A DNA stretch of 61,647 nt, filler included, from an uncultured virus (IMG/VR IMGVR_UViG_2061766007_001776) (Duplodnaviria > Heunggongvirae > Uroviricota > Caudoviricetes). It is 7 parts of one record of this genome, joined end to end, with 100 filler letters (N's around TTAATTAATTAA, not from the genome) between each part and the next. Parts side by side here need not be neighbours in the genome. Positions count along the whole stretch, not along the records: positions 1 to 13,238 come from IMGVR_UViG_2061766007_001776; positions 13,339 to 15,343 come from IMGVR_UViG_2061766007_001776; positions 15,444 to 32,054 come from IMGVR_UViG_2061766007_001776; positions 32,155 to 43,951 come from IMGVR_UViG_2061766007_001776; positions 44,052 to 46,839 come from IMGVR_UViG_2061766007_001776; positions 46,940 to 56,743 come from IMGVR_UViG_2061766007_001776; 1 more part is not named here. One strand, given 5' to 3'. Made by a program: the position numbers and the translations under genes. The first letter of the stretch is position 1; the number at the start of each line of letters is the position of its first letter. Positions 417-49,679 of this stretch are shown here, one piece after another. The notes under the pieces are model-generated. The model was not told the origin of the DNA, did no database searches, and was given only the letters and a program-made list of their open reading frames with translations.

Positions 417-3326
417 TTAACCCTCCTTTCCCTTTACATACTTGAATACAGTTGACTTGGATACACCAAGCTCCTTAGCGATGTCTTCCATTGTGTANNN
501 NNNNNNNNNNNNNNNNNNNNCTTTAGCTTTAGGCAATGCTGTAGATATCAATTTAGGTGAAGCCATCTTCTTTACTTTGTCAGTATCTGTATTCTTCATT
601 ATTTCCCTAAGCTTACTAGGGCTTATTGCATTCTTCTGAATTGCTTCCCACTCACGAGGAGTAATATCAATCATTACGTCCTTCTTGTTAGCACCAACAG
701 CTGCTCTTGCTCTGGTCATCTCGAGCTGACGGAACTTCTTCATACGGTCACGGTCAATGCCAGGATTAGCTTCCATGATCTCCTTGATAGCTATGTTGGC
801 GATGACGAGTGCCTGACGCTCCTTAGGTGCATTACGCTTAGCATTCTCGAGCTTCTGATTGAGTGACTCGACCTCATCCTTGTAAGCTGCTGCAGCTTCA
901 GGGTTACGAGGTGCTGGCTTAATGGCAAGCGATTCCTTACGAGCCTCGATAGCAAGGTGCTTCATGTCATTAGCATACTTAGCATAGAGCTCTTCCTGAA
1001 TGTATCCATGCTTCGGATTACTCATCAGCTCTCTTGCATCCTTAACTAGAGACATTTTAGCAACTTTCTCTCTTACAGGCTCTTCCTTGTAAATAACATT
1101 ACCGTTTTCGTCTTTAGCTAAACTTCCATCTTTATTCTTAACTGGTTTCCACATTGTTCTACCAGTTTCCATATATGTAAGTTCTCCAGATGCATCAGGA
1201 CGCCAAGCTTTCTTCATTTTTCCAGTGTCTTCATCATAAGTAGCTAATTGACGCTCTAAAATATGTGCTTCACTTCCTGCTCTACTTAATAATGTAGATG
1301 CTCCACCATAACCTACAGGATTACCATCTTCATCATATTTAATTTGGTATTTTCTCTTAAGTGCATCAATTCCATTTTCTTTATATGAACGCTGCCAATC
1401 CAAATTATGTTTGTCTGCATCTATAACTGTTTGAGAATATCTGACTGCTCTTGCTAACTCATCTGCTGTTGCTGACTGTAATGTCATGTCAGTGATCAAG
1501 TTAGATATAACACCCATTTCTGTCTGAGTTCTTGACTTTGTTAAGTGAACCATTCCTTCTCTGTAAGGGTATTCTCTCTTTGCATCGAAGTCCTTAAGTC
1601 CATCAAGAGGAGCCATGTTCTTAATATCCTTAATGTTTCTTGTAGGTATTACTGTAACAGTGTCTCCATCAAAGTCTGCTCCTGACAATATCTCAGCAAC
1701 ATTATGGTTAATACCAATTGCATCTGGTGCCACATTACCAATGAACTTCTTACCTTCTTTATTCTTATTATTAACAATAAGTCGAGGTATCTGGAATACA
1801 CCTTCATGAGGATATCTGACGAGTACTACTTCTTCTCCATCTTCATATCCAGGTGCATAAACTTCATTGTCTTTAAGTGTATTAATTGGAATCAACACGT
1901 GTGACTGCTGTCTTGGTAATGCTGCTGCCTNNNNNNNNNNNNNNNNNNNNNNNNNNNNNNNNNNNNNNNNNNNNNNNNNNNNNNNNNNNNNNNNNNNNNN
2001 NNNNNNNNNNNNNNNNNNNNNNNNNNNTGCATAAGTTAAATCCAACTGTTTCTTTATCAATTCCTTAGGCTGCTTTGACAAGAACTGAGAAGGAAGTGTT
2101 TTGGACCATTCCATCCAAGTGCCTTCTGCTGAGATCTTGTTTATTGCACCTAATTGATCATTTCCTTTTTCATCTTCATAGTGATATTGTCCATCAGTCA
2201 TTATCTTAGCACCAAAGACTGCATCAACATCATACTTATTCTTGATAGGTTTGAATGCTTTTGCATCGCCTTTGGATCTAGCTTTTGAACAGTTAACAAC
2301 AATATCATAACCTTCAGGAATCTCATCAGAATATACAGCCATTCCCTTAATATAACGATCTGATGGTTCAGGATTGCCATAATCATCGGTCTTTCCTTCA
2401 ACATCACAGTTCTTAACTGCTATTCTGACCTGAGCATAAGTTGAATTTCCAAGTGATAAGTCTTTAACACCTGGTCTAATCTCAACCATACCATCTCGCT
2501 CAGCTCCACCTTCATCAGGCCATCTTACATAAACTCTTGATCTATCAATATAAGTTGGTAATTCTGGTGACCACCAAGTCTTACCTGCATCAGGAGTATA
2601 ATCTTCCATCGAGTGAAGGTTCTGTAGATTCTCGACAATATCCTTTTTAGTTGTTCCAGGAGGTGCTAATACGACAGTACCAGTATACTGCTTCGGATTA
2701 GTAACCTGACGAATATCAATTTTCTGAACAGAGTAACCTTTCTCTTTAAGCATTAATGAAGCAACTCTCATCTGACTTGCTGAAATACCAGTTCTCTGCT
2801 GTCCGTCTTCCCAAGGATATCCAAGTTCTGTACCTGACGAAATATCCAAATATCCGCCTTTATCCTTAAGAATCTTTTCAAGCCTGTCAGCAACTTGCTC
2901 ATTTAACTGCTTTTTAGGATGCTGTGCTCTTTCATAAATTGAACGGGCTGTTGATTCATTCTTCAAGCCCATTTCTTTAGCAATTGCAGTCCAACCCATT
3001 CCTTTTTTATCATGAAGTCTAACAACTCGAACTGCTTGCTGTTTCTTTTCTTGCTGAGATGACATTGAACGTCTTGCCTTAAGTTCATTAATTGAACAGT
3101 TAAAGTGTTCTGCAATCTGTTTATCAGTCCATCCCATATTATGGTATTCATTGTAAACTCTGTGAAATTCCTCATTTCTCTGATAAGGATTATCTCCAGA
3201 ACCCCAAGGATATCTACCCGAATGCCTTGGAGTACCATAATGTTCGATTACATCTTCAGTTCGATGTAAGTCGATATAAGCTCTAAGTTTTTCATCAAGA
3301 CTACCTTCAACCTTATGCGCTCCCAT
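417..3326 (-). CDS. Single-subunit two-barrel (YonO-like) DNA-dependent RNA polymerase with N- and C-terminal HTH segments
   Basis: 969 aa; catalytic motif SGADFDGDTV preceded by VLVRYPH (R-x-P motif); HTH-like segments WTAIAKEMGLKNESTAR and MEDIAKELGVSKSTV; N-terminal IEHYGTPRHSGRYPWGSG; two N gaps. Confidence 0.8.
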   Translation of the reverse strand: MGAHKVEGSLDEKLRAYIDLHRTEDVIEHYGTPRHSGRYPWGSGDNPYQRNEEFHRVYNEYHNMGWTDKQIAEHFNCSINELKARRSMSSQQEKKQQAVRVVRLHDKKGMGWTAIAKEMGLKNESTARSIYERAQHPKKQLNEQVADRLEKILKDKGGYLDISSGTELGYPWEDGQQRTGISASQMRVASLMLKEKGYSVQKIDIRQVTNPKQYTGTVVLAPPGTTKKDIVENLQNLHSMEDYTPDAGKTWWSPELPTYIDRSRVYVRWPDEGGAERDGMVEIRPGVKDLSLGNSTYAQVRIAVKNCDVEGKTDDYGNPEPSDRYIKGMAVYSDEIPEGYDIVVNCSKARSKGDAKAFKPIKNKYDVDAVFGAKIMTDGQYHYEDEKGNDQLGAINKISAEGTWMEWSKTLPSQFLSKQPKELIKKQLDLTYAXXXXXXXXXXXXXXXXXXXXXXXXXXXXXXXXXAAALPRQQSHVLIPINTLKDNEVYAPGYEDGEEVVLVRYPHEGVFQIPRLIVNNKNKEGKKFIGNVAPDAIGINHNVAEILSGADFDGDTVTVIPTRNIKDIKNMAPLDGLKDFDAKREYPYREGMVHLTKSRTQTEMGVISNLITDMTLQSATADELARAVRYSQTVIDADKHNLDWQRSYKENGIDALKRKYQIKYDEDGNPVGYGGASTLLSRAGSEAHILERQLATYDEDTGKMKKAWRPDASGELTYMETGRTMWKPVKNKDGSLAKDENGNVIYKEEPVREKVAKMSLVKDARELMSNPKHGYIQEELYAKYANDMKHLAIEARKESLAIKPAPRNPEAAAAYKDEVESLNQKLENAKRNAPKERQALVIANIAIKEIMEANPGIDRDRMKKFRQLEMTRARAAVGANKKDVMIDITPREWEAIQKNAISPSKLREIMKNTDTDKVKKMASPKLISTALPKAKXXXXXXXXYTMEDIAKELGVSKSTVFKYVKGKEG

Positions 3327-3886
3327 TACATTTCTCCTTTAATAGTTTGTAATATCTTGTCGAATTGAATTATCTGATCCATAATTGGTAAAATCAGTTC
3401 ACCAGTTGGATTTGAAATATCAATTCCATCATTCTGGTAGATTCTTAATTCGAATCCCATTTGTCCTGGTTTCTGATGATATTCTAAACAAAATAGAGCA
3501 GCATAAATATATAACTGCTCCATCTTAGCTGGTATTTCTCCAGTTTTGAGATCGTGAATTCTTAAAAACTTTAGCTTTTCATCATAGGCTATTGCATCAG
3601 CTGTACCAAAACAATTATCAGAGTAATATAAAGGTTGTTCAGGTCTCATTCGAAATCCAATTGCATCATTTACATATTGATCGAATGTTTTAGTTGTTTG
3701 AGGTAACTCGACTCCAAGCTTTATTAATTTTGCAGCTAAGTCATGTAACTCAGTTCCTCTTTGCACTGCCATAAATCTTCTATAACGGTTTTTAAGTTTT
3801 TCAGGATCGTCTTTTAGCCATCCATGTTTTGAAGCTCCAAGAAAGGCATGACTACCTAATATCTTGGAATGATTGTTCCATTGCAT
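3326..3886 (-). CDS. PD-(D/E)XK nuclease-like protein (DUF2800-like)
   Basis: Motifs HAFLGAS, GTELH, FGTADAI, IHDLKTG, QLYIYA. Confidence 0.7.
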   Translation of the reverse strand: MQWNNHSKILGSHAFLGASKHGWLKDDPEKLKNRYRRFMAVQRGTELHDLAAKLIKLGVELPQTTKTFDQYVNDAIGFRMRPEQPLYYSDNCFGTADAIAYDEKLKFLRIHDLKTGEIPAKMEQLYIYAALFCLEYHQKPGQMGFELRIYQNDGIDISNPTGELILPIMDQIIQFDKILQTIKGEM

Positions 3887-4148
3887 TCAGTACCTCCTCT
3901 TTATTCTCAGGATAAATAAAGGAGGAAAAAGACATCTCATTCATTTTATTAACATAATAGTCCTGATTAGGTCTATGTGATGCCTTTTCAGATTTCTTAT
4001 CTTCTAATGTCGCCCAATGATTATTATAGAAGATTGTCAAATCAGGAACACCTTGTAAATATCCAGAATCGTTCTTAACAACGATACAACCTGGAAATCT
4101 CTCATGCAGTTCCTTGATTAGATTTGATTGAAAATCTCGTTCTAACAT
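3852..4148 (-). CDS. VRR-NUC / Holliday-junction-resolvase-like nuclease
   Basis: MLERDFQ...GVPDL...LEDK...PNQ pattern; ATG at 4148 with AAAGGAG RBS. Confidence 0.75.
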   Translation of the reverse strand: MLERDFQSNLIKELHERFPGCIVVKNDSGYLQGVPDLTIFYNNHWATLEDKKSEKASHRPNQDYYVNKMNEMSFSSFIYPENKEEVLNAMEQSFQDIR

Positions 4149-4185
4149 GTCGTCTCCTTTTGTGCTGTTGATATTTGTAAAAAAA

Positions 4186-4240
4186 CAGGACACTATTTTA
4201 CTCAAGCCAAATTAAGTTAGAAGTTTTGCTGTTAGTGTCC
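4186..4240 (-). ncRNA. ACAGCAA-family structured RNA unit
   Basis: GGACACT-AACAGCAA-...-AGTGTCC-TG; 7-bp closing stem. Confidence 0.6.
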
Positions 4241-4330: not shown

Positions 4331-4438
4331 AATATCATTTTCATAAAAAATATAAAAGGGATTTACGGTATGCTTTCAAATCGACTAAATCCTCATTCGA
4401 TATAATCGATTATCCAGAAAGCTTACACTATCCCCTTC

Positions 4439-4465
4439 TTATAATAGAAGCGAATTTTTTCGCGA
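4439..4465 (-). promoter_or_regulatory. Phage 27-bp promoter-like motif
   Basis: TCGCGAAAAAATTCGCTTC-TATTAT-AA; same spacing as >20 other copies. Confidence 0.65.
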
Positions 4466-6830: not shown

Positions 6831-7451
6831 TTAGTGTTTAACAGGCCACTCAAAACCAAAGTCACTTCTTTTAATCTTACAAATTGGATAGTCACCTGTA
6901 GGGTCAGTTAACCAGAATACTATTCCTTCTATTTCGTTATTATCTAAATACTCTCTAAGAATATCTATATTTAATTTACGATTTTGTAATTCTGTAATAA
7001 TACAAGTGCCATGTTTGTACAAAGTATCTTTCTCTAATTTATAAGGATTGCCTTGGAAATGTGGCCCAATAGCTTCATAAGTTACTGGCTGTATTTCATC
7101 GCCACTTTCAATTGCATGTGACTCTTTATAATTATTAAAAGCAGCAATATACCATTTATCTTCTGCTTTATCTGAATTAAGTTCTACCCAATGGGGCCAA
7201 TGTCCTGTAACTTGATCTGGAATATCTTGACAAGGTATTGCACCTTCTGGAACTTTCTTACCAGCTTTAGCATCATATCTCTTGTACCATTTATCATTAA
7301 TTACAGCACAACAAGATCCATCAATCTTAACAGTAGGAATGCATTCACCGTTTAATACAACTTGTAATCTTTCGTCTGATAGTTTATCTGTTATTCCAAC
7401 AACTTTATGATTTTCATATATTCTTTCAAATAATGTAGGTATTTTTCTCAT
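6831..7451 (-). CDS. ATP-dependent RNA ligase-like protein (DUF5565 / RNA ligase 1 family)
   Basis: Nucleotidyltransferase motifs TVKIDG (I), YEAIG (III), EGIVF (IV), KIKRSDF (V). Confidence 0.75.
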   Translation of the reverse strand: MRKIPTLFERIYENHKVVGITDKLSDERLQVVLNGECIPTVKIDGSCCAVINDKWYKRYDAKAGKKVPEGAIPCQDIPDQVTGHWPHWVELNSDKAEDKWYIAAFNNYKESHAIESGDEIQPVTYEAIGPHFQGNPYKLEKDTLYKHGTCIITELQNRKLNIDILREYLDNNEIEGIVFWLTDPTGDYPICKIKRSDFGFEWPVKH

Positions 7452-7465
7452 ATTATTCATCTCCT

Positions 7466-7789
7466 TTACCAATTTGTAGCAGCATTAAATATCTTTATTT
7501 TAACTTCTTCATATGTATTAGGTGTACAAACTACATTACTTTCTTTATCTAATGATATAATTTCTATTATGCAATTAGCATTCAAAATATCATTTTTAGT
7601 TTTATCCATTTTTTCTTTTAAGTTATCATCTGCAAATAATATTAACGAAGCTAAACCCTCACTATTAAAGTAATCTTCAGCAAAGTTTTTATCGCATTCA
7701 GTAACTGGATAAAACTTACTAATGTGATCCACATTAATTGCATACTTACTACCTTTTTCAACACCATCAACTTCAATAAAATTTATCAT
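7466..7789 (-). CDS. Hypothetical protein
   Basis: 107-aa ORF with GGAGG RBS. Confidence 0.6.
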   Translation of the reverse strand: MINFIEVDGVEKGSKYAINVDHISKFYPVTECDKNFAEDYFNSEGLASLILFADDNLKEKMDKTKNDILNANCIIEIISLDKESNVVCTPNTYEEVKIKIFNAATNW

Positions 7790-7819
7790 ATATATTCCTC
7801 CATTTTTAAATATTGCTTA

Positions 7820-7891
7820 CAGCCCCTACTGGATTCGAACCAGTACATGACAGAATCAAAATCTGCTGCCTTACCATTTGGCGAAGAGGCT
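7820..7891 (-). tRNA. tRNA-Gln(TTG)
   Basis: Cloverleaf: acceptor AGCCTCT/AGGGGCT, D-loop AATGGTAA, anticodon arm GCAGA-TTTTGAT-TCTGT, T-arm ACTGG-TTCGAAT-CCAGT; no encoded CCA. Confidence 0.92.
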
Positions 7892-7898
7892 ACAAATA

Positions 7899-10504: not shown

Positions 10505-13238
10505 TTATTCAAGGAATCCAGGGTCATATTGTGAAATATCATTTATTGCTTCTTCAACGAGTTTGTCAAAGTAACCATAATCAATCTTATCCTCAAGATG
10601 ATTATTCTTGACATATCCAGCTTCAAGCCATCTAACACCTTTAGTACCTGATGGTGACGAATATTTACCCTCGTTCAAACACATTAATTCTGCTCCACCA
10701 TATCCAGGGATAATAGGACAGAATCTTCCAACCTTTCCAATAAAGTTCCTATTATGTCCAGAATCAACTATTTCATCGAGTTCTGCTTCTGTATGATCCA
10801 TAAAGAACTCATTCTTCATATTAATTTCTCTCTTTGTATACTTCTTAGAAATATCATTTCCGAGAGCTTCATCAACAACAATATCTTCTATAGTTTCATA
10901 CTGACTAACATCAGGTAAGTTCTCATTATAATCGAGATATAACGAACCTTTTGATACATTAATTGTACTACATACATCTTCAAATGTAATAGGTTCTTTA
11001 CTAAACAACATCTTGAAGACATAAGGTTCCTGGAACTGAGCTCCTGTTGCTGTCCATCGAGTAGGAATATCTTTACCTTTCTCAATTGCATCTTTACACT
11101 CTTTAATCCAATCTTCATCTGTCTCCGCTAATTTACCTATATAAACTGCATCATTTACTAAGCAGATCTTTTCAAATTCATGTTCAACTTCGAACGAATA
11201 ACCATATCTCTTTCCAAAGTTAAGAATAAAGTTTTCAATATATTCATCAGGATTAACAACCTTAAGTGAATCTGTCTTAATATGAAATATCTTGTAACCT
11301 TGTGCTATAACTTCATCTCTCAAATCCATCATAAACAATGCGCCACGCTTTGCAACAATATTATCAATATTTCTAGGATCCCTAAACTTATTTTCAAAGC
11401 TTGCTGCTGTCTGACCATATATTGCGTTAATAGGTGTCTTAAGAGATGTACTCAAGCGTTTCTTAACATCTTTATTTTCCATATACTTCATAAGTTTACC
11501 ATCAAACAATTTACTTAAGAAGTCCATATCATCATGTTTAATAGCTACTCTCGCCTGAACCAAACTATATGCAACTCGTGTATATCTTCCTAACAAATAC
11601 TCTGCTGCCATGCTGTGAGGATGCATAGAAGTTACATCAAATGTCTTGGAATGACCATACACACCGGGAGTTGCTCGAACTAAACCGCCTTCACCAACTG
11701 GTTCTCCCTTATAAAAACTCTTTTCATTCTTTTTGCCATATGGATCAAATGTATAACCCTCAAAATATGGAAGTAAACTCTTCTTGTCTCCGTGAGGTTG
11801 AGACATCATTTCAGGGAAAATTTCTTCTAAGAATTCCTTTTGATCCGGCAACAATGTATAAACAGGTTCTGCAAGATTTCGATAACAGAAACTGGATTGA
11901 GGTTTCCTTTCGTTTCCAAATATCAGTTTTGCAGTTAACATGTTATCTGTATCATTAACAGTTCCACCTGAGATATCTGCTAATATTTCTCGAGAAACGA
12001 AATCAGCCTGAGTTGCCAACCATACTGCCTCGGTCGCGTCCAAGTCATACCCGTTGTACTCTTTTGCTTGTTCCCATTTCTCTTCTGGAAGTGGCTTATC
12101 CCAATCAGTTTCCATCTCTTTATGATAAATACCTAATTCGATTTCCCACTTCTTTAATGATTGTTTCTTTTTACTATAGTCATAAATATCTGTATAAGAT
12201 AAGTTATAAGCTTCACCAAAGAATGCTTCACGAGAACCTTTTTCTGCATGAATTATCTTTTGTGACAAGTTAAATAACTGTTCATTATTATAACCATTTA
12301 CATGTGCATAAACAATATGATTGTCATAACGTCTACAGTTAAATCCAATTAACTTATACTTCAATAACGGTTCAATATCTTGAGGTGTTGGATTCAACAA
12401 AATGTGCTTTTCTCCACCTAAGAACTTGAAACCAAATATATAAAGATTCTTCCAAACTTCTATATCAAAGAATACTGGTTTGTCATAATCTTTTTCATAC
12501 TCAACTGCATCACTTGCTTCTTCTGACTTAAATGGCATCTTATCTAATAACTCTAAACAATAATCAGAACTATTTGACGACGCCATTGCATACTTCAATA
12601 CGCTTTGATACATATCTGACAAGTCATAATGAACTCCATTATCATATGCATCTTTTAATATCTTGTAGATGAAATCCATATTAGGTTTGTGATGACCATG
12701 AATCTCATTTCGAAGACAACGCATGATAGTTTTACGCATTGCATTTTCATTCTGCATTGCACTGATGTCTAACATTTTACCTCCCTTTTTCTCTTTGAGA
12801 GGCAAACATCCGTCATTAATTTTGGCTATAGGAATATCATTAAATTTTGTCAGCTGCCTCCTCAATGAAGCATTACCTGTAAATATCTTTATTTCTATAT
12901 CATCACCTAAGATACGACTTAACTCATCTACNNNNNNNNNNNNNNNNNNNNNCAAGTGAATACCGGCACCAGACTTACTTAACTCTGCATAAGTTTTAGG
13001 AAACTGACTCGCTGCTTCGATGTTAAGCTGTATGTCTTTTTCACCATTTTCATTCTTTCTATCAAAGTCTAATGTTACTAACGAACTAGGACCTTGAACA
13101 TAATGCAAACGACTTGTATCAATATCTTTAAGTTTAGTTGTGACATTCTCCCAACGCTTACCAGGAATGCCATCTCCTGTTGCATATTGTGCCTTATAAT
13201 CTTGTAAGAATATATCGAGGACTGACGAATCGTTTGCT
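10505..13238 (-). CDS. Primase (AEP-like) - 3'-5' exonuclease - family B DNA polymerase fusion, 5'-truncated by a contig break
   Basis: AEP-like LDFD and ELSKSGAGIHL; ExoI FFDIEV, ExoII GFNCRRYD, ExoIII YNGYD; Pol motifs DVTSMHP, KTPINAIYG, HIKTDS; frame open to the gap at 13239. Confidence 0.85.
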
Positions 13239-21636: not shown

Positions 21637-21667
21637 CTATTAAACGCACATAAAAAATAGCGTTTTA

Positions 21668-31435: not shown

Positions 31436-31524
31436 ATTACTTTTCCTTTCTGACCTCCTANNNNNNNNNNNNNNNNNTCACCTCTCCAATATACGATTAA
31501 ACATTTTCGCGCCACTTTTCACAG

Positions 31525-36360: not shown

Positions 36361-37008
36361 CTAATTAGAGTATTTCGGAAGGTCATCAAGCTCGGGTTTA
36401 TTGTTAAATGTCCAGAGCAATCCAAACATGTTCCACAAAAAGGCTCTGTCGTGTGGTTCATCATTATCACCTCTTAAGTATTTAGTTAAGTGCCTTAAAC
36501 CACTATCAATATAACAGTGAAGAGGGATTCCTTTCTCCCAGTTTCTTTCATCATACTTCTTAGCGCCTTCTTCGTAATGTTTACTTAACTCGAGTATTGC
36601 ATCGTAAGGTGTTTTGTAATAACCTTCTGAGAAAATTAATATTGCTTCATGTATGTACTTTATATCTCTATTAACAATAAATGTACTGATACTATCAAGT
36701 ATTTCACAATATTTTTCTAATTTTCCGTCTTCAATTTCATCCATCTCACGTAAATATCTAATACTGTCAATCCAGCATGAAATAGAATACAAAGGCAACA
36801 AATCCATTCTACCTTTACCTTCTTGTATGTCCCTAACTGCTCCAGAATCAAAACTCCTGCGTTCACCTGAGTCTAATATCTTTTTAAATGTATTTATTGG
36901 ACTTTGCCTATAGCCGCTACAGTACATTGGATTGCTCTTGCTATGCTCGCAATCATGTTTTTCTACACAAGTTTCACACATACTTTTTTCTTCACTCATC
37001 TTTACCAT
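36361..37008 (-). CDS. dATP/dGTP diphosphohydrolase (DUF5664-like)
   Basis: DSGERRSFDSGAVRD..EGKGRMDLLP; YEEGAKKYDERNWEKGIP; DSGLRH; EPH. Confidence 0.8.
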   Translation of the reverse strand: MVKMSEEKSMCETCVEKHDCEHSKSNPMYCSGYRQSPINTFKKILDSGERRSFDSGAVRDIQEGKGRMDLLPLYSISCWIDSIRYLREMDEIEDGKLEKYCEILDSISTFIVNRDIKYIHEAILIFSEGYYKTPYDAILELSKHYEEGAKKYDERNWEKGIPLHCYIDSGLRHLTKYLRGDNDEPHDRAFLWNMFGLLWTFNNKPELDDLPKYSN

Positions 37009-38457: not shown

Positions 38458-38980
38458 TCATTCTTTTTCTCCTTTTAAATAATTAAAATTAGCAATAATT
38501 TCATTTACATGATCTTCTATATTTTTATTGTAATTTTCGTAATCTACAACAAATCCAAGAGTTGCTAAAGAAGTCTGTACACGAATATCTGTTTCCCTTT
38601 TATAACCTTTTTCAACAGTAATAGCAAGACGCATTTCCAAATTTGTAGGAAATCTCATCTGCATTCTGCAAATGTTCCTGCCAAGTTCATACATACAAAT
38701 TGGTTGGTCTGATTCTCCTGCACAAAAATACATTGAGAAAATATCGCATTGTTCAAGCATATTAAATTCCCACTTAATTTGTTCTTCAGCTGCATTTGGG
38801 TCATTAATTGGAAAATCTTTCCTTCTTGGATTAAAGATTACAAGATTATCTAAATTTTTTTCATTTAACAATTCTATTGCTTTATCTTGCCATTCCCAAC
38901 AATTTGTAATACCGCCTGCTAGGAATATTGTTATGTCGTTAGGTTGTCTTATATATTTTTCAGGTGCTGTTATGACTCTC
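38458..38980 (-). CDS. Nucleoside 2-deoxyribosyltransferase-like protein
   Basis: IFLAGGI, FNPRR, QIKWE, YELG. Confidence 0.75.
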
Positions 38981-40010
38981 ATATTATTTCTCCTTATCTT
39001 CACTTTCCTTTGGCATTTCAGTTATAGTTAATAGTATCTTTTCATTATAATACTCATCTAGATATGCCTTAATAAAAATCAAAGCAGCATGTAATGTCAT
39101 TTCACTAGCTAAAACTGTTTTTCCCTCTAATACCATAAATTTTCTTTCTTCCATTTTAATTCCCCCTATTTGCTACTCTATAACCATTATCTAGAGCATC
39201 TAATAATACATTAATATCGTCAGTTGCTTGTGTTGCTTGACCTTCANNNNNNNNNNNNNNNNNNNNNNNNNNNNNNNNNNNNNNNNNNNNNNAATCTTCT
39301 ATTTCTTTTAGTTGTCTTTCTAATTTCTTTGGTTCTTTTATTCGCCCAAGTATTTTAGCCATATATCTTTTTCCTTTCTACAAATCTAGCAGTTATTGTA
39401 GCTTCGAAGTTGAGTTCATCTACATTTTGCATATCTAATACTTCATAAATATCTTCATATAAATCATATCCATAAAGTTTCGCCCATTTCTTGCTGATAC
39501 GAGTTTTATGATGTCTTCTCTTCGGGATTTTAACAGTCTGACTAAATGTAAACTTTTGAGGCATTTGCGCTTCTTGTAATGCTAATTCTTGCAAGTAATG
39601 ACTTAACTTTGGTACTTCGATATTACATTCAAAACTTAATGGCTGATTTAATAAAACTGGCTTTGTAAAAAATGATGGTTCATCCCAATCTAATGTGCAA
39701 CAATTTATACTCGCCAGCTTTTTGCCATCCATGAAAATTATTTCACCCATACAATACTCCTTATTTATTTTGCATTTCTGCTTTCATAATTAATTCTTTA
39801 ACTGTTTTATAATAAGCTAAAACATAAATTGGATAATATGATGCATCACTATGACCAGTTGTAATAATTACGGTTTTAGCGTTCTTGTGATAATTAACTG
39901 GATGAACTTCGATTATATGATTTATATTAATTAATACATCATCTCCATCACTTGTTGCTAATTCTATAAACATATTATTCTTCCTCTCCTTTAAATAAAA
40001 AAAGGGCCAA

Positions 40011-41063
40011 CTAANNNNNNNNNNNNNNNNNNNNNNNNGAAATTCCAACTTCTCTTAATACTCTGCTCAACTCAGCTAATCCAATCTCACCAAAGCAGCG
40101 AGTATTTTCTTTAATCTGTGCAGGTGAAGTTCTCAATATATCTCCAACTGTTATGTATCCAGCCCTTACAAGAGCATTACGATACCTCTTATCAAGTTTG
40201 GGATTGAAGAACTCTGAAACTTTCTTGTCATCCCAACGGTCAGTATCAATCTTGTAAGTAAATCCAATAGACAGCAGGAATTCCTTAAGATTCGTCATAT
40301 TCGAAGCCTTGAAATTCTTAAATGACTCGATAGTTACCTTCTTAACACCGATAATATCTTTAATCATGTTAAGACCATGTGCTTCGAGAATAATCCTTGT
40401 CGCAGGCCATAACTTCTTGCTGTCATATTCGGAAAGCCTAGTCCAGAGTTTTTTATTAATATCTTTGTTATTCATCATGCGCATTGACAAATTAAAATCG
40501 TCAAGTAAAGGCGTAATGTATTTCCATTTGTATGCAAAGTAATACGGAATGCCATTACGATCCAGCACATTAACAAAGTTCTTAATCATACCTCTATCAA
40601 AGTTCAACTTCTCGACTATATCAGCTACCTGAACAGTCTTACCGAGTCTATCATCATTAATCAAATCACCAACAGTAAAGAACTTACCATACTGTAGAGC
40701 TGTGCGAGTTGCTTCGTTAAATCCAAGAGTATACAACTCAGTGTCAAGGTCCCATGCTGGAATATCTTTATTCTTGCTTGAAGCTGCTGCCAAGAGTTCT
40801 TCCTTTGGATCCTGCTCAATTACTGTAACTTTCGGAATAGTTAAGTTCTTACTAAAAGATTCTGGTACAGGAATAACCTGCGGTTCTGTAACTGACTGAG
40901 TCTCACTAGGATCCTTCTCTGTAGCACCGTCACGATATTCTTCAATAATCTCAATACACTGATTAAACGCCAAGCACATGCCCTTTGTTAACTCGGTGTT
41001 AATCTCTTTGAATCTTGCTTCTTCCTTATAAATTTTATCAATTACTTTTGCCCAATTGTCCAT
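40011..41063 (-). CDS. Protein with three RNAP alpha-CTD-like (HhH) repeats
   Basis: TRTALQYGKFFTVGDL; TRIILEAHGLNMIKDI..FKNFK; YRNALVRAGYITVGDI...FGEIGLAEL. Confidence 0.6.
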   Translation of the reverse strand: MDNWAKVIDKIYKEEARFKEINTELTKGMCLAFNQCIEIIEEYRDGATEKDPSETQSVTEPQVIPVPESFSKNLTIPKVTVIEQDPKEELLAAASSKNKDIPAWDLDTELYTLGFNEATRTALQYGKFFTVGDLINDDRLGKTVQVADIVEKLNFDRGMIKNFVNVLDRNGIPYYFAYKWKYITPLLDDFNLSMRMMNNKDINKKLWTRLSEYDSKKLWPATRIILEAHGLNMIKDIIGVKKVTIESFKNFKASNMTNLKEFLLSIGFTYKIDTDRWDDKKVSEFFNPKLDKRYRNALVRAGYITVGDILRTSPAQIKENTRCFGEIGLAELSRVLREVGIXXXXXXXXX

Positions 41064-41367
41064 AAATTTTCGTCTCCTTTTAATTAATCAAATTTGTGTA
41101 ATTGTTACGATGTCATAGTCAAAATCATAACCGCATTTCTTTGCCAATTTTGGACTTACTGCTACTGCACAACTCTCAACACAATCTGGTTTATTATTAA
41201 CAACCAAATCAACATAATCAATACTTCCAACACCTGGTACTTTACTGATTCGTACCTTGGTTCCATTCTTGAAACCTGGAGCGTTAACTTCACCTTCTTT
41301 CAAATCATTATTGATCATTACGAATACAAACCGTTTCACTTTGTCACCTCTTTTCTCACAAATTTTT

Positions 41368-41510
41368 AAGAAACTAAGGAACCGTAACTTTTCGTTATCA
41401 GCTCCTTAGCTTCTGTTATCAAACTTAGGGAGGTAGCCAACATGAACAGATCTGTGTCATAACTAAATATCTTTAGTCATCACATAGATTTGCACAAGTG
41501 ACCTACCACT
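41368..41510 (-). ncRNA. Putative promoter-to-terminator small RNA (long hairpin)
   Basis: Promoter motif 41511-41537; nested stems closing on a GATA loop; terminator hairpin; no RBS-led ORF. Confidence 0.45.
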
Positions 41511-41537
41511 CCATTATACAGTCATTAATTTTCGCGG

Positions 41538-42332: not shown

Positions 42333-43028
42333 TTAATCTTTGTGATTGACATAATATTTCCTCATTACTCTAGTTAGTTTCTTGTTAACGTTCTCTAAAT
42401 ATTTATCTGCTTCTTCATACTTCTTTAAGTAATCTGATGGAAAGTATTTAGGTTTCTTTCTATCTTTCTCAAATATTTGTTTAACTCTTCGATCAAAGTT
42501 ATCCTTATTAAAATAAAATACATATGCTTTTCCATTAAGAACTTCTTCTAATCTTTCAGGATGTTTCTTAATATTTATTATTTCGTGAAGACTAATACCT
42601 ACTTCATCAAATCCCGCATCAAAGATTAAAGCTTTAATTAAATCTTCTGGTAAACGAGCATACTTATTAAAGAAAATATACGGATAATCTAATTCATAAG
42701 ACGGTCCGGTTCTGCCAGTTTCCTTATCTTCTTTAATACAGAAATTTATATGTCCGCCACATGAATATTCTGTATCATAACCCATAAAGTTAAGCCACGC
42801 AATAGACTGAGCTATTCTTCTATCAACCATAAAGTGGTTTCTATTTTTTACTTTTAATGTCTTTGCACAACGAGGACAGAATGTACGTATTTCCAAGTTA
42901 TTAATATATACATCTCGTCTGTCCTCAGGTTTATCAAAACTAAACTTTAGCTTAAGTGGTTTAACATTATAGCAAGTACCACAGATCAAAGCAACATCTT
43001 GAGTTTGTCCAATTTCTATTTTACTCAT
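42333..43028 (-). CDS. Hypothetical protein with CxxC pairs and an LN..GY.T..SC.GH motif
   Basis: CGTC, CPRC, LNFMGYDTEYSCGGH; start MSKIEI with GAAGG RBS. Confidence 0.55.
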   Translation of the reverse strand: MSKIEIGQTQDVALICGTCYNVKPLKLKFSFDKPEDRRDVYINNLEIRTFCPRCAKTLKVKNRNHFMVDRRIAQSIAWLNFMGYDTEYSCGGHINFCIKEDKETGRTGPSYELDYPYIFFNKYARLPEDLIKALIFDAGFDEVGISLHEIINIKKHPERLEEVLNGKAYVFYFNKDNFDRRVKQIFEKDRKKPKYFPSDYLKKYEEADKYLENVNKKLTRVMRKYYVNHKD

Positions 43029-45027
43029 TAGCATCACCTTCTTCCTCATCATCATCTTCGATTTCATCAAACAAATACTCCGATAAATCAAGTAAACCNN
43101 NNNNNNNNATTATTCATTTATTTCATAAACGCCAGTTCTCACTATGTTCAAAAAACACTTTACTTCGTAAACTGCAGTTCTCACTTTGTTCGATCTGAAA
43201 GAACTAAAGGAACCAAATTTCTTTGATTCCTTTAATCCTAGTTTCAAACTTCAAATTACTTTACTTCGGTTTTGACACGCTTCTTAATGTCAACCTCACA
43301 AAAACTATCAATCTTAGCCTCAAGGCCATCTATTCTGTTGTCAAGTCCCTTAACTTTGGCTTTAACTTCCTCAAGCTCTTCGCTGGGAATCTCAACCTTT
43401 TCAGGTTCAGTTTCCTTTTCTACTCGCTTGTATCTTTCATAAGCTCCCATTAAGGTGTTAACAAGGCTGTCAATGTCCTTTTCCAATGATTCACTTTCAT
43501 AGTTAATGTTGATTGTATACTTCATTTCGTTTACCCCCTTAAAATAAAATATTTTAGGTTATTCACCTATAATAATCGTATNNNNNNNNNNNNNNNNNNN
43601 NAGATTTCTCTAGACTCTAACGAAAAGGCGTTCCTCTTCGTGAATGTTTGGGAATTCCTTTCTAAAGTACAACTCGTAATCGTACTGTCCGACATATGAA
43701 AATCCTTCCTTTTCCAACTCCTCATTTAAATCATCAAAGTTGGTTGTGCTGGATTCCCATCGTCTGGACTTCTTTACGTAGTCGTCCTTTACGGTATCCC
43801 AAATAAAAATTCTACCTTTAAACATGATATCACCCCCTCTATAATGAGAGTAAATATCTTTGCGAAAAAACGAAATATTCCTGTAAAAAACGAAATGGAA
43901 CCAAAAGTCCCATCTCGTCTGGATAAGTTACGGTTACTCTTTTAATTCTCCNNNNNNNNNNNNNNNNNNNNNNNNNNNNNNNNNNNNNNNNNNNNTTAAT
44001 TAATTAANNNNNNNNNNNNNNNNNNNNNNNNNNNNNNNNNNNNNNNNNNNNATCAAATATCGTCTGGTTATAGTCAATTAAATGACCATACCATAATATA
44101 AATCCAATAATTGTACCTGCGAATGCGCCGATCGCTACCATTCCAGTTGCTAATAAAAACATCGGTAAACCAACTTTAAGTTCCTCTTTTAAAATGTCTT
44201 TTAATAATTTCTTCATAATTTTTACCTCCTTTTTGTTCTATAATATGCAGTTTTTTTATTGCGAATCGCATTTATTTCATAAACGCCAGTTCTCACTATG
44301 TTCAAACTGAAAAAAATATGGGAACGCTCTATTCCAACGTTCNNNNNNNNNNCCTACAATAGTTTGTTTGGTTTCTATAATATGCAGTTTTTTTTACGCG
44401 AATAGTAAGACATTTATGACTTGTTTATTTAAGTACTAACATAATGTAATTATGGTTTATGCAAAAAAAAAAGAGCAACAGATTTTTCTGCTACTCTCTT
44501 CCGACAAGATTAAATATCTTTATTATTTACTTTGTGTATTNNNNNNNNNNNNNNNNNNNNNNNNNNNNNNNNNNNNNNNNNNNNNNNNNNNNNNNNNNNN
44601 NNNNNNNNNNNNNNNNNNNNNNNNNNNNNNNNNNNNNNNNNNNNNNNNNNNNNNCTTTGTTGCTATTAATGGATTCCCTGTACAAAATACAATATAAAAT
44701 ATTAACCATACTATTCCAATAATTAAATACATAATATCATCTCCTTTCGTTTTCTTGTCATTAGAGGAGTGAATATCTTTGCGAAAAAAGAAAGGCCCGG
44801 ATTACTCCGAGTCTTCTTCCTTTGATTCACGATAACCTTTAATAAATCCTTTAATAAAGTCTACAATTTCTTTGATTATTACAAATTCAATAAATGCTTT
44901 ACAAAATCTTTTAAAAGTCATTCTATCATCTCCTTTCTATAAATAGAGCATAAAAAATAACGAAAAAAAAACAGACCGAACAAAAGTGAGGACTGCAATT
45001 TTTGAACGAAGTGAAAAAAATGTAGAA

Positions 45028-45100
45028 GAGTATTAGATAGCTTCGAACTATCGTCTCCAAGGTATACACCCTGGTGTACTACCATTGTACTATATTAACA
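45028..45100 (-). ncRNA. Degenerate tRNA-like RNA
   Basis: D-arm GTAC-AATGGTA-GTAC, arm CCAGG-GTGTATAC-CTTGG, T-arm GATAG-TTCGAAG-CTATC; weak acceptor stem; promoter 45129-45155. Confidence 0.6.
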
Positions 45101-45461
45101 GGGTATCAAAATCCCTTTTATCTCTCTTCCGTTAAAGAAACGTTTTTTATCGCGACAAAAAATCTAGGAGATATTATCTCCTTAGATGTACAACTGTAAT
45201 GCCGCCAATACCATTCCTAATATTGCTATTACACTTGCACCTATTTCAAGTATATCTCCTAAATTTTTCTTTCTTTTCTTAAANNNNNNNNNNNNNNNNN
45301 NNNNNNNNNNNNNNNNNNNNNNNNNNNNNNNNNNNNNNNCTCCATGAATTTTTGTTTTTGGTTTCTATAATAGTATATTAGTTTCCCGCGTCGCGTAAAA
45401 GAAATTGTGTATTATAGAAACAGAAACAAAAAATTAAATTTTAAATTATGGAGGTAGAACT

Positions 45462-45683
45462 ATGACAAACGGAACTAGCAACACAATTAAAAGATGTGAT
45501 TTATGTGGAAAGATTTTAAAAGATGGAGCAAAAGACATTCATGAGCTTAATAAGCCCTATGAACTGCCTTACCAGATCGAGTGGAATGGAACAGAATGTT
45601 CGATTACTAACAAGGTAGTCAGACATATCTGTAACGACTGCTTGACCAAGGTGATGGAAACAGTTAAAGGACTTATGATGTAA
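45462..45683 (+). CDS. Small CxxC..CxxC zinc-binding protein in a divergent cassette
   Basis: Plus-strand promoter motif 45391-45417, GGAGGT RBS, CDLC...ICNDC, terminator GGGAG..CTCCC plus T-run at 45692-45720. Confidence 0.75.
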   Translation: MTNGTSNTIKRCDLCGKILKDGAKDIHELNKPYELPYQIEWNGTECSITNKVVRHICNDCLTKVMETVKGLMM

Positions 45684-48600
45684 AGCTTTACGGGAGGTAC
45701 TTTTACTCCCATTTTTTTTTAAATTCGCAAAGCATTTATTTTATAAACGCCAGTTTTCACTTTGTTCAAAACACACTTACTAAAGTAACTGTAGTTCTCA
45801 CTTNNNNNNNNNNTGATGATGAAGGTCATCTTGAGATGTATAGTAAAGGAAATAATGTTACATTTCTCGAAGATGGAACTATGGTNNNNNNNNNNNNNNN
45901 NNNNNNNNNNNNNNNNNNNNNNNNNNNNNNNNNNNNNNNNNNNNNNNNNNNNNNNNNNNNNNNNNNNNNNNNNNNNTTCCGGTTTCTCTACCAGCGCTGT
46001 AAATAATATCTCCAGCAATTACAATAACAGCTATCAGTGCTACCAATGTCAATATCTTTCTAATTTTCTTCATATAAACACCTCCTATAATATGTGTGTA
46101 AAACACCTTTAGTTGCTATATAAGAGGTGTAAATTTTAGCGATTTAAATTGGTTTAAAGTCCTTACAATCGTTNNNNNNNNNNNNNNNNNNNNNNNNNNT
46201 ATAGCACCTTTGTCACAAACATGTACGATTCCCAAACCAAGTATATCGTCTTCATAACCATTATCTGGGTTATAATTTTGGCAATCTCCACATTTTTCAT
46301 TTGTGTTATTTGAAAGGTTTTCTTCTGTCATCTTAGTTCTCCTTTATTCCCAAGCTATTCTAACAGTTGCTTCATATAAACCACCATTTGGGCGACGGGG
46401 ATTATCGAATCTTTCAACTATTTTGAGNNNNNNNNNNNNNNNNNNNNNNNNNNNNNNNNTCGCTAGCAATTTCCTCTCGTATAACAAAAGGAATTCCATC
46501 TTTATCTTTAGGAAACATTGACAACATCTCAGGTGGATAGTCAAATATCTTTGTTGACTTATAAGTTTCTGTCTGAACACCGATAGTTCGAACTAGGNNN
46601 NNNNNNNNNNNNNNNNNNNNNNNNNNNNNNNNNNNNNTTAGCTTTTTGTCTTTTATTCATTAGTTCTCCTTTGTAACAGTTACTCTCTTATTTGATATAG
46701 TTACTTTGTATTCACCTTTTTCTCTAAAGTTTACAGTAATACCAGTCTTTTCGAAATGATCTTCTCTGATATAAGCTATTGGACCAGATGTAGTTGCGAT
46801 AACAGATAACACTCCGTTACGTATAAAACTTAGTTCTCTNNNNNNNNNNNNNNNNNNNNNNNNNNNNNNNNNNNNNNNNNNNNTTAATTAATTAANNNNN
46901 NNNNNNNNNNNNNNNNNNNNNNNNNNNNNNNNNNNNNNNGAATGGAACTAAATATCTTAGCTCCAAACGTTCCTAAAATTCAATCAACGCCTTTCAAAGT
47001 AGTAATAATATCGCTTGTGTTTTCTTTGAGCTTCGATCATCTTCTGAATATTCTTATGACGCCGCTTTTCCTGCAACATCATCAATATATAAATCGCTCC
47101 TCCGCTCATCGCAATACTACAAATAAACATTATTAACAATTCTATCATACCTTTGTCCTCCTTTTAGATTTCTATTATATGAAAGAAAAAAAATACGAAA
47201 CACTTTACTTCGTAAACTGCAGTTNNNNNNNNNNNNNNNNNNNNNNNNNNAATAACTTAGCTCTCTCTAAAACTACTAAAAGTCCAGATTAATTCATTAA
47301 ATCTGTATTTGTGTCTGGACCAATTTCACTCACAACATTTGCAGTGAGGTACTTTGCTTCACCAGTTTCATCATCTGAGACCTTGGCTACGACCGAATCG
47401 CCATGCTCGTTGCAATAACTATAAGCGTCGTAAGCAAATGACTTTCTACCGTAATCATAAGCTTCGTTATATACATCGCATAGTTTACGATTGTATTTAC
47501 TCAAAAAGTACAATCCCAAGCCAAGAGTTAGTATTGTTATTACTATAGTCTTGACCATTCGTCTCTTCTCNNNNNNNNNNNNNNNNNNNNNNNNNNNNNN
47601 NNNNNNNNNNNNNNNNNNNNNNNNNNNNNNNNNNNNNNNNNNNNNNNNNACGCAATGGCTTTACCTTTCTGGTCGTCTTTATACCAGCATCTCAGTGTGT
47701 ACTTCTGTACCTCACTCAATTCTGTTGTTTTGTTTAAAGTGTCCAACTGTTTACTCCAAAACATATTTTAATCTCCTTTCTTTTAGTTTCTATAATAACA
47801 ACCTATATTTTCACGAATCNNNNNNNNNNNNNNNNNNNNNNNNNNNNNNNNNNNNNCGAATTGTGCTTAAAAGCCATTCGTCAAATAAAATAACTTTTTC
47901 TGTTTTATAAAAATCGAATGTTTTTACAATCTTTGCACGATATATTGTATAAGTTTCGTAATCATCTTCAATCTTTGTATAAACAGTCCCTTTACTCGAC
48001 CATCTTTCTTTATAGCCATTTTCTGATAAATATCTTAATGCCTCTTCTTCTTTTTTAAACTTGTGCAAATCTTTGACAACACTCGGTAACCAGAAGTCAC
48101 TTTTTACTNNNNNNNNNNNNNNNNNNNNNNNNNNNNNNNNNNNNNNNNNNNNNNCTCCTTTCTATAAAGAGGGCATAAATAAAAGCGAGAGAACTAAATA
48201 TCTTAGCTCTCTCTTTGAGTATCATCCAAACTTCCATTCATTAATAGATGCTAAATTGCCTTCCTNNNNNNNNNNNNNNNNNNNNNNNNNNNNNNNNNNN
48301 NNNNNNNNNNNNNNNNNNNNNNNNNNNNNNNNNNNNNNNNNNNNNNNNNNNNNNNNNNNNNNNNNNNNTGTATTAATCAAGATCCTGTTCTCACTTTCTA
48401 CACTTGTTACTTTAATGAACATAAATTATTTACCTCCATAAAATTGGTGTTAGTTGTTTACTAAGTTCTTCAATATATAGGCATAAAAAAATACGAAAAA
48501 AAGAGAACTAAATATCTTAGCTCTCTCTTTANNNNNNNNNNNNNNNNNNNNNNNNNNNNNNNNNNNNNNNNNNNNNNNNNNNNNNNNNNNNNNNNNNNNN

Positions 48601-49292
48601 NNNNNNNNNNNNNNNNNNNNNNNNNNNNNNNNNNNNNNNNNNNNNNNNNNNNNNNNNNNNNNNNNNNNNNNNNAAGCGTATGTTCCATGTCCAATATATC
48701 CATGGTTTGAAAATATCTTACATTTTCTGACAATATAAATTCTACCGTATATATATTTTTTTCCATATAATCATCTCCTTTCTATAAAGAGGGCATAAAT
48801 AAAAGCGANNNNNNNNNNNNNNNNNNNNNNNNNNNNNNNNNNNNNNNNNNNNNNNNNNNNNNNNNNNNNNNNNNNNNNNNNNNNNNNNNNNNNNNNNNNN
48901 NNNNNNNNNNNNNNNNNNNNNNNNNNNNNNNNNNNNNNNNNNNNNNNNNNNNNNNNNNNNNNNNNNNNNNNNNNNNNNNNNNNNNNNNNNNNNNNNNNNN
49001 NNNNNNNNNNNNNNNNNNNNNNNNNNNNNNNNNNNNNNNATCAACGATATCACTATTATTCGTTAATTCCTGATATTTTAAATATCCTTCGTGTACTTCT
49101 TTACGTACCCTCGTTACAGTTTTCCAATTGCATATCAAGCCTACAGNNNNNNNNNNNNNNNNNNNNNNNTTTCTGTGTATAAGTTTGTAAGTACCTATTA
49201 TATAAAACAAAAAAATAGCGACAGTTCTCATTACATTCAAACTGAAAAAAAAATAAAAAAGAAATTGTACCATGAATTATTGTTTCCAATAA

Positions 49293-49370
49293 CCGGGATA
49301 AAGGCGATTCGAACCCTATTTCTCAACTAATATTACAAGTTGTGTTTTAACCTATATAAACTAATCCCCG
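49293..49370 (-). ncRNA. Degenerate tRNA-like RNA
   Basis: CGGGGAT...ATCCCGG acceptor-like ends, D-arm GTTT..AAAC, arm CAACT-TGTAATATT-AGTTG, GGTTCGAATC; promoter 49392-49418. Confidence 0.55.
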
Positions 49371-49679
49371 CCATGCTGGCCTTGATCTCTTCTATAATAT
49401 AGAGTTATTTTTTAGCGACAGTTCTCACTTTGTTCAAAACACACTTACTAAAAGTAACTGCAGTTCTCACTATGTTCAAAACACACTTACTAAAGTAACT
49501 NNNNNNNNNNNNNNNNNNNNNNNNNNNNNNNNNNNNNNNNNNNNNNNNNNNNNNNNNNNNNNNNNNNNNNNNNNNNNNNNNNNNNNNNNNNNNNNNNNNN
49601 NNNNNNNNNNNNNNNNNNNNNNNNNNNNNNNNNNNNNNNNNNNNNNNNNNNNNNNCGAAGATAAGAGAGTTAGCTTAGA

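Follow-up and report, generated by a model that had tools for sequence, protein, structure and literature searches.

The window analysed here is a stretch of 61,647 bases from an uncultured tailed virus (IMG/VR IMGVR_UViG_2061766007_001776). It has a G+C content of about 35%, its genes lie nearly all on the minus strand and its DNA is present in bovine and other ruminant gut metagenomes. A tailed-phage gene set was identified (terminase, connector, DNA polymerase, helicase, exonuclease, annealing protein and RNA ligase); a megablast search of positions 1-25000 against a phage collection gave no match. Two items in the window are the subject of this report: the gene for a predicted single-chain two-barrel RNA polymerase with fused helix-turn-helix (HTH) motifs, and a short motif in 24 copies that is proposed to be the promoter of this enzyme.

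The polymerase was characterized by profile searches, a structural model, a six-polymerase alignment and an alignment of 30 diverse family members (alignment A1). The gene and the parts of its product used below are as follows.

417-3326, minus strand: 969-residue predicted single-chain two-barrel RNA polymerase, PHROG 4291, with fused HTH motifs (profile and model).
3177-3242, minus strand: conserved N-terminal tag HYGTPRHSGRYPWGSG..., residues 29-50, predicted to be disordered (invariant columns of A1; predicted local distance difference test score, pLDDT, below 50).
3066-3131, minus strand: HTH motif 1, residues 66-87 (helices of the model; six-polymerase alignment).
2925-2996, minus strand: HTH motif 2, residues 111-134, recognition helix ES(S/T)xR (Pfam HTH_28 at residues 100-134).
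1662-1676, minus strand: catalytic loop DFDGD, residues 551-555 (GADFDGD at 549-555), invariant in A1.
429-497, minus strand: C-terminal HTH motif 3, residues 944-966 (Pfam HTH_23, E 7.9e-11; weak Sigma70_r4_2, E 3e-5).

The match to phrog_4291 (E 5.6e-279) extends over residues 22-967 and over positions 7-908 of the 909 in the profile; 41 residues read as X because the DNA is masked. Full-length homologues (35-41% identity) occur in 250 phage records, from Arthrobacter, Gordonia, Streptomyces, Lactococcus, Faecalibacterium and other hosts, where they were deposited as 'RNA-dependent RNA polymerase' or 'HTH DNA-binding protein', and the PHROG 4291-type family comprises at least 7,996 clusters at E values up to 1e-20. 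The two-barrel fold was assigned from a model of a 95%-identical protein (P0002; pLDDT 81.4, predicted TM-score 0.72). Its Foldseek matches include QDE-1 (E 1.4e-9), the gp64-type polymerase 8f72_B of the P23-45 family (E 2.2e-7) and RDR2 (E about 1e-5), with low whole-chain TM-scores of 0.24-0.45. The arginine of HTH motif 2 is invariant in A1; Lactococcus phage P118 has PGSVTN in place of the ES(S/T)xR of all other members. In the window the gene order is endonuclease (3852-4205), exonuclease (3326-3886), polymerase (417-3326) and small gene (110-412), and the same order, next to packaging genes, was found in all five reference phages used here (FP_oengus, Circum, DrGrey, Tanis and P118).

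Some further observations concern the polymerase and its surroundings. The small gene at 110-412 (minus strand, phrog_4303, E 8.9e-21) directly follows the polymerase gene, as a small gene does in 5/5 reference phages; it could encode a partner of the polymerase or a function linked to the genome end. A profile of the tag (polymerase residues 22-56) gave weak matches to two DUF7211 open reading frames (ORFs) of the structural block (E 0.0057 and 0.042), and no convincing second protein in the five reference phages (all E > 0.1). The tag and the DUF7211 matches of ORFs 58236-60098 and 52210-53109 (both minus strand) start with a 'D-x-L-x-HYG' stretch, which may be a capsid-loading or protease signal. 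An ORF of 83 residues (41088-41339, minus strand) shares 32.6% identity with polymerase residues 476-563 (E 1e-5), with DFDYD replacing DFDGD; it may be a barrel fragment retained as a small protein, or a remnant, and a second polymerase at this position was ruled out given an ORF of only 83 residues. Domains resembling the C-terminal domain of the RNA polymerase alpha subunit (alphaCTD, PF03118) make up a 73-residue protein (34276-34497, minus strand, E 6.6e-23) and the end of a 350-residue protein (40011-41063, minus strand, E 3e-5). The cellular domain binds A/T-rich upstream DNA and activators, and the phage proteins might disturb transcription by the host or assist at the A-run within the motif.

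The motif has the summary form T-CGC-N15-TWTWAT-RG in the window, and its consensus over the columns of a 44-nt matrix is T-CGC-(G/A/T)-A/T run-...-T-A/T-T-W-A-T-A/G-G-R-A-A. Three boxes are conserved: CGC at positions 0-2, ACA at 10-12 (weak in the window) and T-n-T-n-A-T-G/A at 18-24. They are spaced by about 10.5 bp, approximately one helical turn, and therefore lie on one face of the DNA helix. The strict pattern CGY-N15-TWTWATRR was matched 14 times against 1.19 expected, and 14 or more matches were obtained in 0/100 dinucleotide shuffles; 12 of the 14 belong to the motif set, and those at 21024+ and 28665+ lie outside it. Scanning with the 44-nt matrix yielded 21 unmasked sites, all but one on the minus strand. 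Twenty of these sites then served to train a 29-nt matrix, which matched 25 times at a cut-off of at least 8 bits. One match, 42672 (8.7 bits), is weak and lies inside ORF 42333-43091; it was excluded, which leaves a final set of 24 (23 minus, one plus), with eight scattered copies and 16 in an array at 43.5-49.7 kb (15 minus, one plus). The scores of the 20 training sites are circular since the matrix was built on them; the four copies outside the training set (31511, 47815, 48187 and 48807) and the shuffle test are not.

The structural block (49.7-61.6 kb, 12.4% N) contains no copy at this cut-off, and neither a copy nor an obvious other repeated signal was seen at the window ends. Additional copies in the array may be hidden, because 22.9% of it is N. 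The first-pass annotation had reported at least 24 copies with 16 in the array, one plus-strand copy ahead of a cassette at 45462, no copy in the packaging and virion region and a DFDGD polymerase of 969 residues, all of which was borne out by the searches above; the eight scattered sites that it named are all on the minus strand, and the positions it gave are the 3' ends of the pattern. The copies are listed below.

4437-4465, minus strand: copy 4464, head of the endonuclease-exonuclease-polymerase operon (3852-4205, 3326-3886, 417-3326); 29.1 bits.
20710-20738, minus strand: copy with the Shine-Dalgarno sequence (SD) and ATG of ORF 20365-20673 39 nt downstream.
20936-20964, minus strand: copy with SD and ATG about 60 nt downstream; ORF partly masked.
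21635-21663, minus strand: copy upstream of the ORF ending at 21277.
25843-25871, minus strand: copy with masked DNA from about 50 nt downstream.
26953-26981, minus strand: copy upstream of ORF 26431-26940.
31484-31512, minus strand: copy upstream of the DUF6353 ORF 30539-31435; outside the training set.
41509-41537, minus strand: copy 41536, followed by a 172-nt leader, the mini-ORF 41088-41339 and the alphaCTD-like ORF 40011-41063.
43837-43865, minus strand: array copy upstream of ORF 43610-43825.
44236-44264, minus strand: array copy upstream of ORF 44004-44216.
44373-44401, minus strand: array copy 44400; about 30 nt on, terminator-like hairpin 44342-44322.
44756-44784, minus strand: array copy right after terminator 44811-44796, upstream of a small ORF.
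44935-44963, minus strand: array copy upstream of a small ORF.
45127-45155, minus strand: array copy after terminator 45182-45166, upstream of the tRNA-like gene 45028-45099.
45363-45391, minus strand: array copy 45390, back to back with the plus-strand copy.
45391-45419, plus strand: sole plus-strand copy (C of CGC at 45392), upstream of ORF 45462-45683, the only plus-strand ORF of the region.
46114-46142, minus strand: array copy upstream of a small ORF.
47170-47198, minus strand: array copy upstream of a small ORF.
47788-47816, minus strand: array copy upstream of a small ORF; upstream flank masked; outside the training set.
48160-48188, minus strand: array copy 48187, abutting terminator 48213-48187; outside the training set.
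48468-48496, minus strand: array copy abutting terminator 48530-48498.
48780-48808, minus strand: array copy 16 nt before ORF 48470-48766, its 29 nt identical to copy 48187; outside the training set.
49193-49221, minus strand: array copy; downstream DNA partly masked.
49390-49418, minus strand: copy 49417, the first of the array, upstream of a tRNA-like sequence.

The copies are oriented with the downstream gene, 23/24 being on the coding (minus) strand. Where it was measured, the distance from the conserved G (position 25) to a strong ribosome-binding site and ATG is 14-60 nt, with longer leaders at copies 4464 (234 nt) and 41536 (172 nt). A copy is followed by SD and ATG, by a tRNA-like sequence (two copies) or by a stretch that ends in a terminator-like hairpin (one, copy 44400, where the untranslated stretch and hairpin possibly form a small RNA). 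The tRNA-like gene 45028-45099 matches the Rfam tRNA family (35.9 bits) and was not called by ARAGORN; the sequence downstream of copy 49417 (approximately 49300-49390) contains a GGTTCGAATC loop and was called by neither Rfam nor ARAGORN. Terminator-like hairpins number 15 in 41.6-61.6 kb against 7.6 expected, and several abut motif copies. The CGC boxes of copies 45390 (minus) and 45392 (plus) overlap, forming a divergent pair of candidate promoters. Besides the motif, an 11-mer, GAAAGCATACC, occurs in the polymerase-operon leader (4367-4377) and upstream of the first ORF at the opposite end of the window (61432-61442), in both cases on the minus strand; it was discarded as not significant, with two or more matches in 20/100 shuffles.

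The same motif register was recovered from related phages. The five reference phages were read via over-represented words. FP_oengus (Faecalibacterium, 49% G+C) carries 13 coding-strand copies of gaCGCGAAAAAtnCAGnnTnCTTTATGGAaGg and Arthrobacter phage Circum (45% G+C) carries seven of TCGCGTAAATTACAnGGGCTATAAT(A/G)(G/A)A. Streptomyces phage DrGrey (60% G+C) and Gordonia phage Tanis (51% G+C) contain 11 and 12 coding-strand copies, respectively, of TCGCA-N4-wTTACAnGnCC-TATA(A/G)T-GAGACCCC, and Lactococcus phage P118 contains nine copies of TTTTACATACCCTATAATGAAAGG, a variant with TTACA and TATAAT but without the CGC box. The common register is CGC at 0-2 (except in P118), CA at 11-12, the hexamer at 18-23 and purines from 24, and it is kept in every lineage examined that encodes the HTH-flanked polymerase, with hosts of two phyla and 30-60% G+C. 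Coding-strand counts of CGY-N16-WTWRTRR are 13-17 in the window, FP_oengus, Circum, DrGrey and Tanis, with 2-6 expected over the two strands combined; P118 departs from this because its CGC box is missing. A matrix built from the five other genomes placed 13/20 window sites among the 30 best of 107,328 positions and seven among the best eight.

A larger sample was drawn from IMG/VR with alignment A1 as the query, a single-protein query having given no relative. In 80 polymerase loci the family matrix gave 149 matches on the polymerase strand against eight on the opposite strand, and 70/80 loci were matched. Of the 68 loci with enough upstream DNA, 61 have a copy ahead of the polymerase gene (median distance 881 nt); this is the head of the endonuclease-exonuclease-polymerase operon, as for copy 4464. 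The search was also reversed by running a motif pattern with 16 specified bases against 2.9 million IMG/VR viral contigs. At least 122 stretches were found and 80 were fetched; a polymerase gene lies within 4 kb in 29 of these, and in 28 it is about 0.9-2.8 kb downstream (mostly about 1 kb) on the same strand. Ten other records were examined whole: seven encode the polymerase, including 5/5 that are at least 90% complete, and the three without it are fragments rated 37-56% complete. Polymerase-less phages of Lactococcus, Streptomyces, Faecalibacterium and Gordonia (n = 4) gave 0 matches on either strand.

These comparisons suggest that the 24 sites probably belong to a promoter class of phages that encode the PHROG 4291 polymerase, and that this polymerase reads them. 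The first-pass annotation had proposed the motif as the cognate promoter of the enzyme and had pointed to related polymerase-encoding genomes as the place to look; the proposal gains support from the shared register in FP_oengus, Circum, DrGrey and Tanis (with the P118 variant), from the co-occurrence, from the reverse search and from the lack of sigma70 features described below. In the proposed mechanism the fused HTH modules would bind the upstream boxes as double-stranded DNA, with HTH motif 2 on the CGC box; the AT-rich box would be melted and RNA would start at or just after the purines at 24-25. The three boxes may be matched to the three HTH motifs in this way; the sole pointer to recognition of CGC by HTH motif 2 is P118, which lacks both the box and the conserved arginine. 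Transcription from the motif would serve the small early-looking genes of the array, replication genes scattered elsewhere and the polymerase operon; read-through from that operon across the joined genome ends may reach the structural genes. No strong coding-strand terminator was seen in FP_oengus from the polymerase operon to the end of the capsid gene, and read-through from the operon promoter is therefore possible there. The first 9.7 kb of Tanis contain no motif copy (best match 7.2 bits, on the wrong strand).

Window sites and 130 distinct IMG/VR sites were compared with host promoters. The key bases of a sigma70-type -10 box are A(-11) and T(-7); the -35 box is often missing from actinobacterial promoters, and Firmicute promoters that lack it normally need an extended -10 TG. 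The first-pass annotation had noted the lack of a TTGACA-like -35 box, and none was found at 16-18 bp in the column counts. Sigma70-type scans were unenriched wherever they were run (48 against 57.6 expected, and 32 against 40.7 expected), gave no match before the polymerase operon and did not score the motif sites as strong matches. The TG element is present in 0/20 window sites and 4/130 IMG/VR sites. The best-kept positions in the IMG/VR set are C0, G1, C2, A10, C11, A12, T18, T20, A22, T23 and G24, with T20, A22, T23, C0, G1 and C11 each kept in 122-128 of the 130. At position 19, the equivalent of A(-11), the 130 sites have 59 A and 60 T, and A is present in 0/13 FP_oengus sites. With neither -35 box nor TG, and with A(-11) not kept, the motif is, as far as its columns go, not a sigma70-type promoter.

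Several observations weigh against recognition by the phage enzyme, and the first group of them favours a different reader: host sigmaA holoenzyme could read the hexamer, alone or, much as at T4 middle promoters, with a phage protein on the CGC and ACA boxes, and the polymerase would then serve late genes from another, unseen promoter as YonO does. The -10-like combination of A19 and T23 is present in 12/20 window sites and 57/130 IMG/VR sites (0/13 in FP_oengus), and a good sigmaA -10 hexamer is present in 7/7 Circum, 11/11 DrGrey, 12/12 Tanis and 9/9 P118 sites, so that host holoenzyme might fire at these hexamers. Early-looking small genes lie behind these sites, as does the polymerase operon, whose expression has to come before the enzyme exists. 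The operon itself stands behind copy 4464. In FP_oengus, which is temperate and has an integrase gene, the operon copy follows a strong terminator by about 50 nt (27608-27684; nine pairs, seven of them G-C) and the operon therefore seems shielded from transcription further upstream; no enzyme carried in by a virion is available at prophage induction, and host polymerase must therefore make the first enzyme. Weak host firing at the motif, or virion delivery during infection, would solve this first-enzyme problem. YonO, the sole characterized relative, acts on late genes; in both the window and Tanis the structural genes are without the motif. The announcements of Vardy (PMC9671010) and Conley (PMC10868162) interpret the motif of cluster DJ as a -10 promoter of the sigma70 type.

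Three points concern the data themselves. N's make up 8.1% of the window. The five-genome matrix recovered one window site at 12 bits or more, from which it follows that the window version has diverged, mainly in the ACA box and a G+C-rich spacer. The link between HTH motif 2 and CGC comes from one lineage and therefore represents one evolutionary event.

Host recognition is nevertheless considered unlikely, although it is a serious contender. The positions with no role in sigma binding (C0, G1, C11 and A12) are nearly invariant, whereas the A(-11) equivalent is not kept across the family and both the -35 box and the TG are lacking, as set out above. Upstream boxes shared by phages of two phyla require a reader that is itself conserved and encoded by the phage, and the polymerase is the sole conserved DNA-binding protein known for this phage group. 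The four polymerase-less phages, which infect the same host genera, are without such sites.

Another phage-encoded reader can be imagined, namely a small sigma-like factor that, like T4 gp55, directs the core polymerase of the host to the motif and leaves another role for the two-barrel protein. Profile searches miss highly diverged sigma factors, the majority of small ORFs in the window match no family, and the phrog_4303 gene and its counterparts behind the polymerase gene would offer candidates. We consider this quite improbable. No sigma domain was detected among 115 ORFs at E values up to 0.001, and conservation of a factor of this kind would be expected throughout the range of the motif; in the available part of Koert et al. 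none is a signature gene. The catalytic loop of the polymerase is intact and invariant in 30 diverse members, which argues for an active enzyme in need of its own promoters.

That the repeats are not promoters at all, and serve instead as recombination 'boundary sequences', operators of a regulator or RNA processing signals, has very little to commend it. In the accessible part of the Giantsbane preprint (10.1101/2020.01.10.891226) the 32-bp intergenic repeat of cluster AU is taken to promote gene shuffling, and repeats between small genes may permit shuffling as a by-product. The strand polarity with the downstream gene is strict, however, and includes the lone plus-strand copy; sites follow terminators and stand shortly before ribosome-binding sites; position-specific boxes are conserved at 30-60% G+C across phyla; and a copy is constantly kept at the head of the polymerase operon, where genes are not shuffled.

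Promoters of T7 and SP6 are compact and phage-specific, run into the start site and end in TATAG(A/G), and in T4 middle promoters an upstream box replaces the -35 element and is accompanied by a -10-like box. The present system differs from both: neither a T7-type polymerase nor a MotA/AsiA-like protein, nor any sigma factor, was found in the window (PHROGs, 116 ORFs; Pfam, 115 ORFs), although diverged analogues of MotA/AsiA may be present, and the enzyme is of the two-barrel type. SPbeta YonO (Forrest et al. 2017, PMC5467207) is likewise a single-chain two-barrel polymerase of a Firmicute phage, of a different and distantly related family. It serves one late operon with one mapped start and its promoter was left open in print, whereas the motif here is found in many copies at early and middle genes and at no structural gene, and the window polymerase, unlike YonO, has fused HTH motifs. 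The closest solved phage folds are those of P23-45 (8f72_B, 8f5m_B and 8h2m), with a non-virion gp64 and a virion gp96 that use GC-rich and AT-rich promoters. According to the available text of PMC10770324, the two-barrel enzymes of that group read multi-copy motifs that precede early genes and are lacking in enzyme-less relatives; 'helix-turn-helix' occurs 0 times in that text, with no mention of fused HTH modules. Here too the motif is present with the enzyme and absent from the four enzyme-less phages. Starts and occupancy were measured for P23-45, while the window motif is known from sequence alone, and the two sets of motifs are unrelated.

Both components have been described separately, the polymerase family as a prediction and the repeats within single clusters and under other readings. 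Ruprich-Robert and Thuriaux (2010) placed the phage 1706 protein in a separate family of YonO-like proteins. Koert et al. (bioRxiv 10.1101/842583) reported a putative polymerase with HTH domains at both ends as a signature gene of the 1706/FP_oengus/actinophage group; the enzyme is predicted only and, in the accessible text, 'promoter' occurs 0 times. The window protein is a full-length homologue of this polymerase (35-41% identity, DxDGD loop, terminal HTHs, same gene order), and the window adds a rumen-phage member and a promoter-like motif common to its relatives. The 50/43-bp motif of cluster DJ (Vardy; Conley) and the cluster AU repeat (Giantsbane) are reported, in the portions available, as five to six copies between small central genes with a TATAAT core. 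Likened by description, they are very probably the same element as the window motif, and the copies in Tanis (cluster DJ) fit. Those portions give the sigma70 -10 or recombination reading and contain no link to a polymerase and no comparison across clusters or phyla. In the text of Klyczek 2017 'promoter' and 'RNA polymerase' occur 0 times, and searches of the literature for literal motif strings returned unrelated papers only. Within a literature survey that left figures, supplements and Garneau et al. 2008 (phage 1706) outside its scope, no bench test of a PHROG 4291 enzyme and no paper tying the motif to the polymerase across phyla were found.

Recognition of the motif by the polymerase can be extended to a fuller scheme, in which a sigma-free machine would read the three boxes on one helix face through its three HTHs in hosts from Actinobacteria to Firmicutes, a single polypeptide thus doing the work of core and sigma together. 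Delivery in the capsid mediated by the tag would allow it to fire the early array upon entry, and the promoter copy at its own operon would then provide feed-forward expression, with read-through across the joined genome ends into the structural genes. This scheme as a whole is doubtful and is offered very tentatively.

Other features of the window were noted in passing. The DNA polymerase (phrog_4210) is divided between at least two pieces, 10505-13108 and 14936-15343 (both minus strand), which match profile positions 511-1279 and 268-384 and are separated by unrelated ORFs, with masked stretches nearby; the terminase large-subunit ORF (57098-58027, minus strand) covers its own profile in part. 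Introns, inteins or homing-endonuclease insertions may account for the split polymerase and the partial terminase. An RNA ligase (RLIG1-like) and a DUF2828/DUF7788 protein (an 'RNA-binding protein' in PHROGs) are encoded at 6831-7472 and 23857-25185 (both minus strand) and a tRNA-Gln at 7819-7892, which suggests a module for RNA repair or tRNA maintenance. In the structural block, ORF 56276-56740 (minus strand) contains a papain-fold glutamine-deamidase toxin-type domain (PF15644, E 1.6e-8) and may represent a virion-borne cargo domain. A dATP/dGTP diphosphohydrolase N-domain, a protein resembling nucleoside 2-deoxyribosyltransferase and a DUF4422 protein (36361-37008, 38458-39003 and 35224-35994, respectively; all minus strand) may point to modification of nucleotides or DNA.

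Phage polymerases that use promoters of their own (T7, SP6 and N4) are standard tools and textbook examples, and those in wide use are all of the right-hand type; promoter recognition by single-chain two-barrel polymerases is poorly understood. With a 30-nt candidate promoter of three boxes and three candidate reading heads, sigma-free promoter finding becomes directly testable in this class. If the pair works alone it would provide a compact expression system for Gram-positive bacteria, an orthogonal system being a prospect rather than a result. The family spans phages of gut, rumen, dairy and soil, and several members can be cultured in hosts that are harmless (Gordonia, Arthrobacter, Streptomyces and Lactococcus). 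If the assignment is true, the annotation of these phages would be corrected in two respects: genes now labelled as 'RNA-dependent RNA polymerase' or 'HTH DNA-binding protein' would be named as the reader, and repeats now taken as sigma70 boxes or recombination boundaries would be named as its promoters.

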